Source of the DNA: Candidatus Hydrogenedentota bacterium
GTDB lineage: Bacteria > Hydrogenedentota > Hydrogenedentia > Hydrogenedentales > SLHB01
DNA: 17,348 nt
Reading direction: 5' to 3'
NCBI GenBank assembly: GCA_029974275.1
Contig: JARKSN010000052.1
Span: 1 to 17,348 of the forward strand
Positions 3,001 to 9,000 of this stretch are shown piece after piece. Made by a program: the position numbers. Each line of letters starts with the position of its first letter. Position 1 is the stretch's first letter.

Positions 3001-6000
3001 TTCAAGGGGATAGCATTGACGCCGGGCGCATCCAAGAGCAGTGGGGGGAGTTTAACAGCCACATTCGCGCGCTTGAAGTCCCCTTGTTCGTTATTCCCGG
3101 CAACCACGACATCTCGAATCCTTTCATGCTCGAATGGTGGCGCGCGACGCTGGGGCGCACCTACTACTCTTTCACCTATCGCGATTGTCTCTTCGTCATG
3201 CTCAACACAATGGAATATTGGAAGGACTTTGCGGCATACCTCGGAGACGAGCAGATTCGTTACGCATTGGACGCCATCCGCAAGCACCCGAACGTGCGTC
3301 ATACCTTTGTCTTCCTGCATGTGCCGCATTGGCTCGACGAGACCAACGCCGAATGGCCTATCCTCGAACAGGCCCTGGCATCCCGGCCCCACACTGTTTT
3401 TGCGGGCCATATTCATCGGAATACATATGAGGAACGCAACGGAGGCCAATACCTAGTGGTCACCGCGACCAAAGGCGACAAGCCTCTAGTCTCCCCCCCC
3501 AAGGCCCCTGAATTGGGCGTCTTTCCGGCCTGGGCGCAGATTTCCGTGGAGGGAAGCCAAGCCCAGCTTACCCTTGTAGAACCTGGCGCAGGCCGCACAT
3601 GGCCCGCCAATATCGCCCCGACAGCAAACCTCAAGGCCTTGCGGAACCTAGTCACGCAAGAGGCCTTGATGCCGGAGAAAGTCGGCGACGGCATATGGAA
3701 AACGGGATTTGTCACAACGGTCGTCAACCAATTGCCGGGCGTCGTAAAGCTCCAACTCGCCGTGCAACATCCATTTGGAGACGCCTGGAAACCCATTTCG
3801 GAAAAGGACGCCGCCCTTTCTTTGGAAGTGCTTCCGGGCGAAAAGCAGGCCATCGTCCAGACGTTCCATGTCCCCGAATCACAACTAACGCCAGCGCCTC
3901 GAATCGCCACGGAATTGACCTATAAAGGTGTATCGCTCTACCGGCAAGCCGAGCGCAATGTCCCGGTCTTTCCCAAAGAGGCATTGCGTTGGCCGCGCGA
4001 GTGGATGGTTCTTGCGTCCCCTTACGACTCAGGGGATATGTCCGACGTCCCCTCGGACGATCCGCGATCCGAATGGCCGTTGCTGTTTGTCAATCATCCT
4101 GCGGAAAGCGGATACAAACCGGACGAATCGCTTGCCGAAAACGGGCGTGTCTTGACGTGGAGGGCTCTGCCCGTGATGGAAAGAGAAGATTCGGCAATTG
4201 TGGACTTGGGGCCGTTGTCCGACTTGCCGCTCAAGGTCTTCACCTATGCCTCGACGTATGTGTACAGCCCGACGGCTCGCATCGCATACGCACAGTTCCG
4301 GGTGGACGACTACGGACAAATTCTCGTGAACGGGAAGATGATCGAGGATGGTCGAGTGTTTCGCACGCGCCGCGATCCCATTTTTGTTGCGCTTCCCCTT
4401 CACGAAGGCTGGAACAACGTCACCGTGAAGCCCATCAACATTGTCGGCGGCTGGACCTTCCGCTTTCTTTTCGCGGATCCCGACCAGGAACTCCGGTTCG
4501 CCAACGTGCCGCAATAGATCCGATCGCGAATATCAACGCAATGCATCCAACGGAATGGCCTCGTCGATGATCATTTCCGGGATGTCGTCGCGAATGGGAT
4601 AAAGGTACTTGCCGTCTTCGCGCACCAAGCCGCCTTCAATCGGGGCGTCAACCGCCTCGCCTGCGCGATTCGTTACGCCGCCTTGGCGAATGGCGGCATT
4701 GATGCGCGCCACCAGCGCATCGTCCGCCAGAGCAAGGGCCGTCTTGTTGTCAGGACACACCAACAGCTTGAGCAGTTCAACATCCACCATGGCCGTCTCT
4801 CCATGCCAATTTCAGGTATTGTAGCGTGCTGAATCGCGCGCTTACAAGAGAACACACGCACGATCATTGCAGGCGTCGGCTCCTTTCCCAAAATAGAAAT
4901 CCCCTTTCCGCCTTGCGCGCCTTCCTCTTTGACGGAGCAAGGCCGCGCGCCGCGGAAAGGGGACCGTCTCTATCCATTCACCGAAGCGAGCCCGATTTTC
5001 CCGGCGACCTGCATGCGTCGCCGGATGTAATCCGGTCTACACCAGTCCCTGATCCAACATCGCGTTGGCGACCTTGGAGAAGCCGGCGATATTGGCGCCG
5101 GTGACGTAGTTGCCGGTTTGCTCGTACTCCTCCGAAGCCTTGTACGCTTGCGTATGAATTTCCTTCATGATGTCGCGCAACCGGTTGTCCACTTCCTCGC
5201 GCGTCCATGCGGTATGCTGCGAATTCTGGGCCATTTCCAAGCCCGACACCGCCACGCCGCCGGCATTGGCCGCCTTGCCCGGCGCGTACAGAACCTTGTT
5301 CTTCAGAAAAACCTCGACGCCATCGGGATCGGTCGGCATGTTCGCCCCCTCGCCCACCAGGAAACAGCCGTTCTTCACGAGCGTCTCGGCGTCTTTTCCG
5401 GAGATCTCGTTCTGCGTCGCGCTCGGAAACGCGCAATCGCACTTCACGCCCCACGGCGTCGCGCCTTCCATGTACTTCACGCCCGAAAATTTGTTCGCAT
5501 ACTCGGAAATGCGGCCGCGGCGGACGTTCTTGAGGTCCATGATATAGGCCAGCTTTTCCTCGTCGATGCCTGCGGGATCATGAATGGTGCCGTTCGAATC
5601 GGAAAGCGTGACGGCCTTGCCGCCAAGCTGATTGATCTTTTCGATGGTGTACTGCGCCACGTTGCCGGAACCGCTGACGACGCAGATTTTGCCCGCTATC
5701 GAATCGCCGCGGACCCCCAGCATGTTCTGCGCAAAATACACGCATCCATATCCCGTGGCCTCGGGACGAATCAGCGAACCGCCCCAATTGAGACCCTTAC
5801 CCGTCAACACGCCCGTGAACTCGTTGCGCAAGCGCTTATACTGACCGAACAGGAACCCGATCTCGCGTCCGCCAACGCCAATATCGCCCGCGGGCACGTC
5901 CGTGTCCGCCCCGACATGCTTGGCCAATTCGATCATGAACGATTGACAGAACCGCATCACCTCATTGTTCGATTTTCCCTTCGGATCAAAATCCGAACCG

Positions 6001-9000
6001 CCCTTGCCGCCGCCCATGGGAAGAGTCGTCAAGGCATTCTTGAAAATTTGCTCAAACGCCAAAAACTTCAAAATGCCGAGATATACCGTGGGATGAAACC
6101 GCAGTCCGCCCTTGTACGGCCCAATGGCGCTGTTAAACTGAATGCGGAATCCGCGATTGACCTGCACGTTTCCATGATCGTCCAACCACGGAACCCGGAA
6201 CATGATCACGCGCTCCGGCTCCGTCAGCCGCTCCAAAATGCGGTGCTTCTGATATTCCGGATGCCGCTCGAGCACCGGAGCCAGCGAATCGAGCACCTCC
6301 TTCACCGCCTGATGGAATTCAGGCTCCGCAGGATTGCGTTTGACGACCAGACTCATTACGTCAGTGATGTACGACATGCAAGACTCCCTCATCAGTTTCG
6401 GGGATTGCCCCGGAATCCCGGCGCGCGCCCCAGTTTCCCTGCCGACTCACGCAAGCGGCAGCATATAGCCGTATCGCGCAAGCGTACCGGCAGCGGAAAT
6501 GCTTGTCAAGATCGTGAAGACCCTTTGGAAACGGTTTTTTGTTCCGGCAAATTGCCGGAATTTTCCGAAAAACCCCGCGAATGCCCTGCCCCCGAAGAAC
6601 CGTCTCACCGCAGAGACGTTGGCGCATCCCAAACAAAGATACGGCAAATTTTCCGGTTGTATTGAACCATGAAAGCGTACGCGCTATGATGAACGCCAGA
6701 CGAGGCCCTGCAGCGCCGCGCAGATTTCGCGCCGCGGACCTCCGGAGCGATTCGACGCAGGTCTGGCATGGATATCAAAACACAGCGAAAAATGGTGAGC
6801 ATTCTGCGCGTGTTGCGCAGCGACGAAAGTCCCATGGGAAGCGAACGGATAGCGCACGACCTCGAACTTGCCGGCGCGCCGCTCACCGAACGCACCATCC
6901 GGAATTACCTGGCCTTAGCCGATGCCCTCGGTTGGACGGAAAATCTTGGGCGGCGCGGACGCCGCATCACCAGCGCAGGCATTCGCGAGGTCGAGCGCGC
7001 GCTCGTCATGGACAAGGTAGGGTTCATCGCGGCGCGCGTTGAAGAACTCGCCTATCAAATGGATTTCGATCCGCACACCCGCAAGGGCAAGGTCATCCTG
7101 AACATCACGACCTTCCCCCTGGCGGACGTTCGGGCCGCGTTCGCCGCCATGGACGAGGTCTTTCGCGCCGGATTGGGCATGGGACATCTGTGCGCGCTCG
7201 CGTTTCCGGGCGAACGCCTTGGCGGCATTCAAACGCCCAAAGGGTGCTGCGCGATCGGAACCGTATGCAGCGTCACGATCAACGGTCTCCTGTTGCGCGC
7301 CCGAATCGCTGCCACATCCCGCTTCGGCGGACTGCTCGAGCTAGAAAAGCGGCAGCCCAAACGTTTCGTCCAAATCATCACCTACGATGGCACAACCCTT
7401 GATCCCCTCGAAATATTCATCCGGGGCCACATGACCAGCGTTGCCCAGACCGCCCAGACCGGATCCGGCTTTGTCGGCGCCAGTTTCCGCGAGATCCCCA
7501 TGTCATGCCTTGGAGAGGCTCGCCGACTTATCAGCGAAGCCGATCGCGTCGGCCTTGGCGGCGTGCTGGTCGTGGGCAACCCCGGCCAGCCCCTGCTCGA
7601 TGTTCCCGTCACCCAAGGACGCGTGGGCCTCATCGTGTTCGGAGGCCTCAACCCAATCGCCGCCGTCGTGGAGACCGGCATCGCGGTCACCAGCACCGCC
7701 ATGTGCGCCTTGTGCGACTATCCCAGCCTTGTCGACGTCGCCCAACTCCCCAATCTCTTTTCCGCCAAAGGCATATCCGTGCGATAGACGTCCGGCGCTT
7801 TGGAGAAGGCGCGGTTGACTTACGTGCGGTGCTCGCTAAAAAGACGACGCAACAGATCGGGATCGTTGGCCACTCGGAGCGCCGTCTCCATCTCGATTTC
7901 ACCGCGCTGGCACAGATTTCTCAAACTGTGTTCCAGGGTGTAAGCGCCAGGAATCGCCGCAAACAGATTGGGGATATGATCCAGCTGGCCGGCGCGGAGG
8001 GCGTGGCGGATGGCGTCGTTGGGAATCAACGCCTCGCTCGCCAACGCGTGGCCCGCGCCGTCCCGCGTCGGCACGAGCCGCTGCGTGATGATGCCCCGAA
8101 TCCCGGAAGCCAAAATGTGCAGCGCCACGGCGCGTTGCTCGCGCGGATATGTCAAAACAAGACGGTGAAGAGCCTCGACGGCGTTTGAGACGGGCATCGT
8201 GACCAGCATCAAACAGTTCATCTCAGACGCATGCACGACGAGCTCCAGGGCCCCCGGCTCGTTCAGGCCGTCGAGTGCGATGACATCGGGATCTTGCCGG
8301 AAAGCCTGACGCATCCCTTCCAGAAAAGAGGGCGCATCGACGCCCAATTCCCGCTGCTTGATGACACTGCGCCGAGTCTGGTGAGCAATCAAGATCGGGT
8401 CTTCCAGAGTGACGATGATCTTTCTGAACTCGTCGTTGACAACGCCGATCATTGCCGCCAAGGTCGTGCTCTTGCCGCTACGGGCAGGGCCCGTGACCAG
8501 GACCAACCCGTTGGCGCAGCGGGCAAGATTGCGCACGCCGGGGGGGAGTCCCAACTCCTCAATCGCGGGAACATACTGCTCGATCCGCCGAAAGGCCGCT
8601 TCGATCTGGCCGCGTTGATAATGCACGTGCGCACGCCAAGCGCCCAATTCTGGAACGGCAAAGGGGAGATCGAGGCTTCGAGCCCGTGAGAGGTCCTTGC
8701 GCTGACGTTCGTTGAGGATGCCCAACAACATGGCTTCAAGCTGCAACCCGTCGAGAGGGGTTTCGCCTATGGGGAACAATTCGCGGCGAACGCGGCCCAT
8801 GGGGGGAGCCCCGCCGCACAGATGCAGCACAGTCGCGTCCAGCTCGATCGCTTTTTGGAGAAGGGGCGCCACATCAATAGCCATGACAAATTGCGCCAAA
8901 GCGTCTGCCGCATCGACACGATCAAATTCAATGGCGTATTCGAAACCTTCGCCCGGTTGCTCGGGGCCTATGATTCGGACCAAGGCGCCCCGCGCTCGAA

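Follow-up and report, generated by a model that had tools for sequence, protein, structure and literature searches.

NrpR is known from some bacteria. In the archaeon Methanococcus maripaludis each NrpR chain carries two NRDs, and the nif operators are two, close together and both of the N6 type; Lie et al. are said to have reported in 2005 that this repressor uses two operators. The archaeal operator is described as GGAA-N6-TTCC (PMC2723118), and repression there as being released by 2-oxoglutarate (PMC2723118, PMC4902934, PMC9765008). In Methanosarcina, NrpRI is the chain described as binding DNA (PMC3960522, bioRxiv 2020.06.15.153874). At the level of titles and abstracts, the open literature searched describes no target or operator of any bacterial NrpR.

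The divergent nrpR–gdhA locus

The window, a stretch of 17,348 nucleotides from a Candidatus Hydrogenedentota bacterium, carries nrpR and gdhA back to back, with a spacer of 390 nt from start codon to start codon (Table 1). Domain searches and the sequence confirm this divergon and the two palindromes that a preliminary description had placed in it, and an Rfam scan found no riboswitch in the spacer and only a tRNA in the window. NrpR has the domain composition of its family, a winged helix-turn-helix (PF08461 HTH_12, E 7e-11) followed by one NRD (PF01995, E 3e-78), and matches the fold of 3NEK (E 1e-18, TM 0.90–0.92 on the target, model pLDDT 95.9). It is the sole NRD protein of the genome (one PF01995 match), and conserved NRD motifs common to NrpR and 3NEK are only suggestive as to release by 2-oxoglutarate. 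The gdhA product scores 769 bits against NF006929, above the cut-off of 536 for NADP-specific glutamate dehydrogenase, and is the only glutamate dehydrogenase found in the genome (one PF00208 match).

Table 1. Features of the nrpR–gdhA divergon, in window coordinates
Feature	Position	Strand	Description
gdhA, NADP-specific glutamate dehydrogenase	5037-6377	-	446 aa; ATG start at 6377, from sequence
gdhA ribosome-binding site GAGGGAG	6384-6390	-	6 nt before ATG; inferred from sequence
Site A, primary operator (predicted) CGGCAGCATATAGCCG	6456-6471	.	CGG(M)(W)-N6-(W)(K)CCG; ~+3 to +18 of predicted gdhA transcript
Predicted gdhA sigma-70 promoter	6481-6509	-	-35 TTGACA (6509-6504), 17 nt, -10 TACGCT (6486-6481)
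Perfect 9-1-9 palindrome holding CGGCA-N3-TGCCG	6542-6560	.	87.5 bp from A; possible third site
Site B, auxiliary operator (predicted) CGGCAAATTTTCCG	6642-6655	.	CGGMA-N4-TKCCG; centre 185 bp from A; ends 6 nt before nrpR -35
Predicted nrpR sigma-70 promoter	6662-6690	+	TTGAAC-17-TATGAT
nrpR	6768-7787	+	339 aa; winged HTH (10-74) + single NRD (84-321)

Judged by its sequence, site A is the known archaeal NrpR operator geometry with C/G flanks, not a new motif. It agrees with GGAA-N6-TTCC in geometry and in position at the target promoter, and at 5 of 8 base positions; in 6 of 8 divergons of family f8 it reads exactly CGGAA-N6-TTCCG. Site A starts 9 nt past the gdhA -10 (TTGACA-17-TACGCT), and across loci its start falls 8–11 nt past the predicted -10 in 45 of 51 cases, which bears out its earlier placement just downstream of that element; the positions given then, 6472 and 6641, are the edges of A and B. 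By matrix the site of this genome is weak, at 14.5 bits and rank 36 of 138 matches above 11 bits. Site B repeats the half-sites of A around a spacer of N4 instead of N6, that is, 2 bp shorter, and, scored at 25.2 bits by a matrix from which it was left out, outranks every other match in the whole genome. The 9-1-9 palindrome recurs at the same distance from A only in genome G115, and family f3 has N4 sites 85–87 bp from A.

A four-copy model of the NRD, built without the helix-turn-helix, scores 0.87 against 0.00 for the best control, with 96% of contacts agreeing between runs and pLDDT of at least 89, and gives one NRD copy two separate self-interfaces (199–222 and 80–97/176–183/244–247). Known pairs pass the mark for this complex score in 20 of 30 cases and single chains in 1 of 23, the score being calibrated on two copies only; a dimer would reach the mark too, and the score may stem from likeness to the solved 3NEK.

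Distribution of the two sites

Among 133 genomes of the class, NrpR was found in 55, in 38 of them divergent to gdhA. Leave-one-family-out matrices, from whose training the tested family was excluded, place both sites upstream of gdhA in 34 of the 38 divergons, in 8 of the 12 genomes that carry nrpR away from gdhA and in 2 of 31 in which no nrpR was found. Taken singly, CGG-N10-CCG lies within 190 nt of gdhA in 38/38 linked loci, 11/12 unlinked loci and 6/32 without nrpR, and strict B within 450 nt in 35/38, 9/12 and 2/32, respectively. The two genomes with both sites and no nrpR, G014 (88% complete) and G027 (82%), have gdhA genes whose sisters are in nrpR-bearing genomes; with the query used, nrpR was not found in these two or in G028, G012 and G100. 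Both sites are absent from gdhA orthologues that are 72–82% identical and reside in genomes without nrpR. Comparison of these promoters supports a loss of both sites along with nrpR, the losses not being proven independent: 7 label changes are required on the gdhA tree, only 1 of them forced by well-supported branches.

Site B travels with gdhA, not with nrpR. It precedes none of 10 unlinked main-clade nrpR genes, 5 of which lie directly behind another gene, so that their promoter is not in view, and the earlier assignment of B as an operator specific to nrpR is not supported. In unlinked f3 loci B is present in 9/9 (four genera), 149–164 bp from A, none of its 10 half-site bases being altered while its centre varies; all 9 unlinked loci that retain B belong to this one family. 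Several f3 loci without linked nrpR have an upstream gene in the same direction as gdhA, and a sigma-70 match scoring at least 12 beyond B occurs in 0/11 such f3 loci versus 18/22 linked f1/f2/f6/f11 loci with B.

These data bear on the reading that A and B are two independent operators without a loop, A repressing gdhA and B autoregulating nrpR, with B beside gdhA after rearrangement being a relic. The position of B is what such a reading expects, ending 4–8 nt short of the predicted nrpR -35 in 18/22 linked f1/f2/f6/f11 loci with B and lying, by eye, within or just past the apparent nrpR promoter in f8 and some f3 loci, and in G048 and G055 A is kept and B was lost on unlinking. However, B is intact in 9/9 unlinked f3 loci devoid of a divergent promoter and is missing before 10/10 unlinked main-clade nrpR genes, and the A–B phasing described below holds across clades. 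We regard independent operators as unlikely.

A sister NrpR clade, taken as an independent set, has spacer peaks at 4 (61/65 loci) and 6 (57/65), where shuffles expect 3.4 and 3.8, respectively. The two clades with N4 sites are sisters at 98% SH-aLRT in a quick tree, and the pair recurs beside nrpR before non-homologous targets. In a set of 80 GTDB NrpR loci from other phyla, mostly Nitrospirota and many inside operons, the N4+N6 pair was not seen just upstream of nrpR (N4 in 11/74, N6 in 20/74). Some of these loci have N6 or N4+N6 sites before neighbouring targets.

As described earlier, glnB and glnK have sigma-54-type TGGC-N7-TTGC promoters upstream, and rpoN is present. No A or B sites precede glnB-glnA, glnK-amtB, the second GS gene or gltB of this genome, so operators before glnA and glnK-amtB, as in an archaeal-type regulon, are not found here. 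Among 18 P-II promoters of nrpR-bearing relatives there is 1 A-like and 1 borderline B-like match, and none has both. Behind the 9 best B and 14 best A matches of the genome a crude ORF reading recognised no nitrogen gene except gdhA, and only one A+B pair is strong, one other being weak. The proposal that NrpR is dedicated to gdhA stands for this genome and its clade, but in the sister clade the pair precedes gdhA and also glutamate-synthase-like and NuoE/F-like genes.

Spacing of the sites and the proposed loop

The promoter sequences make it very probable that glutamate dehydrogenase is controlled by this bacterial NrpR by way of two DNA sites, and the A–B spacing suggests a DNA loop between the two, formed by the repressor. 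NrpR would repress NADP-glutamate dehydrogenase locally. One DNA-binding head of a tetrameric NrpR (dimer of dimers) would occupy A, the N6 operator at the start of gdhA transcription, and the other would occupy B, the N4 operator lying 185 bp upstream, so that the gdhA promoter is looped out in a LacI-like manner. Binding of 2-oxoglutarate, a substrate of glutamate dehydrogenase, to the NRD would make NrpR leave the DNA and thereby switch glutamate synthesis on when the carbon skeleton accumulates. Since in this lineage B lies right next to the nrpR -35, nrpR itself is probably damped by this complex too. For the whole reading, local repression of gdhA by an A–B loop relieved by 2-oxoglutarate, we estimate a probability of about 0.55. 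As to its parts, NrpR most likely binds site A and likely binds site B, repression and release by 2-oxoglutarate are reasonably likely by analogy with the family, and the loop is slightly favoured.

The A–B distances recur every ~11.2 bp, at 11.15 bp in the class (n = 32, R 0.50, p 0.003) and 11.3 bp in the sister clade (n = 52, R 0.40, p 0.001), significance being taken from a jitter null, which ignores kinship; in-vivo lac loop periods are given as 10.95–11.6 (PMC1762422). An A–B phase fitted to either clade holds for the other as well (p 0.003 and 0.0004), the B-to-promoter phase does not transfer (p 1.0 and 0.66), and B-to-B distances have no periodicity (p 0.52). Periodicity weakens when distinct distance values alone are used (class p 0.06, sister clade p 0.26), and a first phase-transfer test with fixed parameters put 27 of 52 loci in phase versus 23.9 expected. 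Within the sister clade alone, B-to-promoter distances are as periodic as A–B (R 0.41 versus 0.40), and with best-scoring promoters only the A–B periodicity is not significant (p 0.24).

A different role for the spacers is envisaged in a ligand-driven switch, in which apo-NrpR on N6 represses and 2-oxoglutarate-bound NrpR closes its heads and moves to N4, where it activates the target or limits nrpR. Such a switch would suit the two sharp spacer classes with nothing between, the better conservation of B than of A and the periodic B-to-promoter distance within the sister clade, and Bacillus subtilis GltC, described as changing boxes, offers a precedent (PMC6794564). Nevertheless, B lies 55–170 bp upstream of the -10, its phase relative to the promoter fails to carry over between clades, and for archaeal NrpR 2-oxoglutarate is described only as releasing (PMC4902934), which leaves the switch a low probability.

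It is still less probable that B serves a second, unrelated transcription factor inherited with NrpR. The spacer of B does differ, its pattern is also matched at other places in genomes, whether or not they have nrpR (a low class-wide background of 0–15 copies per genome), and Nitrospirota and other NrpR loci mostly have no N4 just upstream of nrpR. But the half-sites of B are those of A and shift with them between lineages, f8 having CGGAA in A (16/20) and B (16/16) and the sister clade YGGCA in both; moreover, B is lost together with nrpR, occurs in two sister NrpR clades and forms just one strong pair with A in this genome. That A and B are merely conserved gdhA promoter-region sequence with no tie to NrpR is strongly disfavoured, because the 72–82% identical orthologues in genomes without nrpR have neither site and the pair recurs before non-homologous targets beside nrpR, even though the patterns were first derived from these loci and the independence of the losses is unproven.

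It speaks against the loop reading that a spacer 2 bp shorter turns the half-sites by ~70 degrees, so that one rigid head would be unable to read both. We tentatively suggest that in one clade of bacterial NrpR a repressor that governs nitrogen genes globally in archaea may have become a 2-oxoglutarate switch for glutamate synthesis, built as an asymmetric loop in which a single tetramer recognises identical half-sites spaced by N6 (start site) and by N4 (far upstream). The spacer would encode which head or ligand state binds, and the geometry of the loop would be recorded, across phyla, in operator distances that repeat every 11 bp. For a bacterial NrpR there are now precisely located putative sites, a probable target and a candidate rule for their spacing, and as the gdhA promoter is of the sigma-70 type, sites and rule are testable in E. 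coli. Nitrogen control in these uncultured bacteria would be split, with sigma-54 serving scavenging (glnA, amtB) and NrpR serving the formation of glutamate. By holding two spacer classes of one operator, such a repressor would give direct access to the way 2-oxoglutarate shifts its DNA-binding heads, and would be a candidate 2-oxoglutarate biosensor.

Relation to known regulatory systems

The M. maripaludis NrpR acting on nif and glnA resembles the present system in its NRD fold, winged helix-turn-helix, N6 geometry, operator just past the promoter and use of two operators, and its release by 2-oxoglutarate is what we propose here. In contrast, the promoter here is of the bacterial sigma-70 type, the target is gdhA and not nif, glnA or glnK-amtB, each chain has one NRD, the half-site is often GGCA, and the second operator is N4 and 85–190 bp away. 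In Methanosarcina NrpR is likewise split into shorter chains, NrpRI and NrpRII; here, there is no NrpRII-like second NRD gene, and the global regulon of 23 proteins there is set against apparently one locus. The proposed arrangement would work like the LacI O1/O3 loop, with a primary operator at the start site, an auxiliary one upstream and a period near 11 bp (PMC1762422), as well as a tetramer with two heads, only modelled here; unlike LacI, the protein is unrelated, the operators differ in half-site spacing and the loop is a proposal. Finally, B. subtilis GltC at gltC-gltAB is an LysR-type activator of unrelated fold with adjacent boxes, yet it works similarly as a regulator divergent from a glutamate-forming enzyme, with several boxes in the spacer and 2-oxoglutarate described as the signal (PMC6794564).

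The nrpR–gdhA spacer and its palindromes

The divergon with two palindromes claimed in the preliminary description is real: the NADP-specific glutamate dehydrogenase (GDH) gene gdhA and nrpR lie back to back, and both sites fall within the 390-nt spacer between them. Each gene is single-copy in this genome, the closest named homologues carry the label Candidatus Hydrogenedentes, and the NrpR model matches 3NEK, the structure of the NrpR regulatory domain (NRD) of MJ0159.

Features of the window
Feature	Position	Strand	Remarks
tRNA-Leu(CAA)	2160-2246	plus	
ORF	4533-4790	plus	85 aa; no Pfam match; presumably Trm112-like
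gdhA	5037-6377	minus	NADP-specific GDH
Site A	6456-6471		N6 palindrome, 9 nt past a predicted TTGACA-17-TACGCT promoter facing gdhA
Palindrome between A and B	6542-6560		perfect, 19 bp (9-1-9), N3 spacer, half-sites like those of A and B
Site B	6642-6655		N4 palindrome, 6 nt ahead of a predicted TTGAAC-17-TATGAT promoter facing nrpR
nrpR	6768-7787	plus	339 aa; winged HTH and one NRD
PilZ domain fused to PilT-like ATPase	7820-9223	minus	convergent with nrpR
ORF	10455-12188	minus	no Pfam match

Read as half-sites, C-GG(M)(W)-N6-(W)(K)CC-G, site A is by its sequence an archaeal NrpR operator in shape and a predicted operator here; PMC2723118 gives GGAA-N6-TTCC as the target bound by M. maripaludis NrpR. 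The exact form CGGAA-N6-TTCCG occurs in 6/8 divergons of one family (f8), and in 45 of 51 loci the site starts 8-11 nt past a predicted -10, which is a repressor position. Within this genome site A scores weakly (14.5 bits, rank 36/138) and site B is the best match (25.2 bits). The perfect palindrome between them is a possible third operator: it lies 87.5 bp from site A, a distance at which genome G115 also has an N3 site, and family f3 carries N4 sites at 85-87 bp. A B-like site without an A partner (19.8 bits; G000, C135:48608) lies in AT-rich intergenic DNA upstream of an apparent response-regulator gene.

The other nitrogen genes of this genome, which has rpoN, bear out the sigma-54 promoters proposed earlier, with TGGC-N7-TTGC before both glnB-glnA and glnK-amtB and neither A nor B before these, gltB or the second GS gene. 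Among relatives bearing nrpR (30 P-II loci retrieved from those listed), the sigma-54 pattern is found in 11/18 P-II promoters; the same set holds one A-like and one borderline B-like site, and none with both.

Distribution of the sites in the class and in a sister clade

NrpR is present in 55/133 genomes of the class and a close GdhA in 90/133, of which 81 gdhA upstream regions and one fragment (G007) were examined, leaving out three 5'-truncated genes and six regions not fetched. In 38 of the 55 genomes nrpR is divergent to gdhA (linked); elsewhere lie 13 copies of the window's NrpR type (main clade) and four divergent ones (40-45% identical). CGG-N10-CCG is found within 190 nt of gdhA in 38/38 linked, 11/12 unlinked and 6/32 genomes without nrpR, and the strict B pattern within 450 nt in 35/38, 9/12 and 2/32. 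The worry that these patterns derive from the same loci was addressed with matrices from whose training the family under test was excluded (A at least 11 bits, B at least 15 bits; one locus with <240 nt dropped), and both sites were scored in 34/38 linked, 8/12 unlinked and 2/31 genomes without nrpR. The two exceptions, G014 (88% complete) and G027 (82% complete), likely reflect assembly gaps, given their incompleteness and the position of their GdhA N-termini in the tree, next to those of nrpR-bearing G015 and G029. In G101, an unlinked miss, the only NrpR is the divergent one. Seven label changes are needed on the GdhA N-terminus tree and strong branches force only one, so that repeated independent loss is likely only. 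G004 has two near-identical nrpR-gdhA divergons, L025 (C36) and L061 (C45), probably an assembly duplicate.

Replication comes from 80 metagenome loci whose NrpR belongs to a sister clade (37-47% identical to the window NrpR; 98% SH-aLRT for the sister relation in a quick tree; Syntrophorhabdaceae copies included); these loci played no role in motif derivation. Of them, 69 have at least 400 nt upstream, 65 of them non-redundant, and in this set GG[ACT]A-Nk-T[AGT]CC is present at k=4 in 61/65 and k=6 in 57/65 (shuffles, 3.4 and 3.8), other spacers reaching at most 18 of 65. N6 sites lie on the divergent-target side, N4 sites on the nrpR side; at the target promoters (L166-L243) N6 sites often come in tandem, at a spacing of exactly 22 bp in 23 cases and of 32 bp in three. 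The half-sites of A and B co-vary, CGGAA in f8 and YGGCA in the sister clade, as expected if one protein reads both. Targets include gdhA, near nrpR in 21/84 loci (17 divergent), NuoE/F-like genes (9/84) and an FMN glutamate-synthase-like gene in about 31/65, judged from N-termini, where look-alikes match PF01645. The N4+N6 pair just upstream of nrpR is missing in 80 distant GTDB loci, mostly Nitrospirota, some of which (L246, L297) have N6 or N4+N6 before glutamate-synthase-like genes.

Other arrangements were also seen. Divergent sister-clade NrpR lies back to back with NuoE/NuoF-like genes, rather than gdhA, in G092 (L039), G105 (L016) and G101 (L024), and NrpR does so in six metagenome loci. 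Two Syntrophorhabdaceae-type loci (L283, L321) have NrpR paralogues of different clades flanking a PPDK_N-domain gene; one paralogue lies within a gdhA-nrpR operon, and the second has two N6 sites and one N4 site. In Nitrospirota L249, L250, L269 and L275, nrpR shares an operon with two genes ahead of it, HTH-cupin and glutamate-synthase-like; N6 sites precede the operon, and P-II often comes next after nrpR.

Allegiance of site B and A–B spacing

Judged by its distribution, site B belongs to gdhA, and its earlier assignment as an operator specific to nrpR is not supported. In nine unlinked f3 genomes B keeps intact half-sites around a variable centre, 149-164 bp from A, and a sigma-70 match (score at least 12) lies beyond B in 0/11 f3 loci without linked nrpR and in 18/22 linked f1, f2, f6 and f11 loci having B; in G015, G025, G029, G014 and G027 the gene upstream of gdhA has the same orientation as gdhA. 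B is absent from the 450 nt upstream of unlinked main-clade nrpR (0/10), a fair test for only five, since the other five sit directly behind another gene. Counting against this assignment to gdhA, the nine unlinked genomes that keep B all come from a single family, and B has been lost, with A retained, in G048 and G055. (In these two, L113 and L114, gdhA is immediately preceded by a P-II gene.) Because B abuts or overlaps the nrpR promoter where nrpR is linked, autoregulation is likely its second job.

A–B distances in the class span 85-190 bp and cluster around 86, 119, 131, 153, 163, 173 and 186. Collapsed by genus (n=35), they fit best a period of 10.9 (R 0.45), with a jitter p of 0.005 that becomes 0.016 when the 148-158 cluster is removed and 0.06 when each distinct value is counted once. 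In the sister clade, where each locus contributes a single distance (n=52), the period is 11.3 (R 0.40), with p 0.001 for all loci and 0.26 for distinct values. Fits to lac looping in vivo in PMC1762422 give 10.95-11.6 bp per turn. A first phase-transfer test (period 10.9, 2.5-bp window) was negative, at 27/52 versus 23.9 expected. When three class distances >200 bp were excluded (n=32) and the fit to one clade was scored on the other, A–B phase transferred (p 0.003 and 0.0004) and B-to-promoter phase did not (p 1.0 and 0.66); within the sister clade A–B and B-to-promoter distances are equally periodic. The phasing supports looping short of proof, as kinship is not accounted for in the null and the promoter positions are predictions.

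Modelled NrpR assembly, proposed repression and known systems

A four-copy model of residues 78-324 scores 0.87 (best control 0.00), with contact agreement between runs of at least 96% and pLDDT of at least 89, on a mark reached by 20/30 known homodimers and 1/23 single chains and calibrated for two copies only; 3NEK being already solved, the modelling may have reproduced a memorised structure. In the model one copy contacts a second through residues 199-222 and a third through 80-97, 176-183 and 244-247. This dimer of dimers would carry two DNA-binding heads. Most likely, an NrpR tetramer would bridge A and B and shut the gdhA promoter, and 2-oxoglutarate, which releases archaeal NrpR according to PMC4902934 and PMC9765008, would open it so that GDH is made as its substrate accumulates. 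Two explanations are possible for the N4 spacer: the heads may differ from each other, or ligand state may set which spacing is read.

PMC2723118 already reports NrpR in certain Bacteria. No paper on a bacterial NrpR target stood among those listed by our literature searches; Lie 2005, Lie 2007 and the 2010 structure paper, with their supplements, may mention bacterial gene neighbourhoods. Domains and operator shape place the window protein in the NrpR family, whereas the system is not a member of the archaeal global NrpR regulon; it resembles the lac loop in layout and B. subtilis GltC (PMC6794564) in logic.
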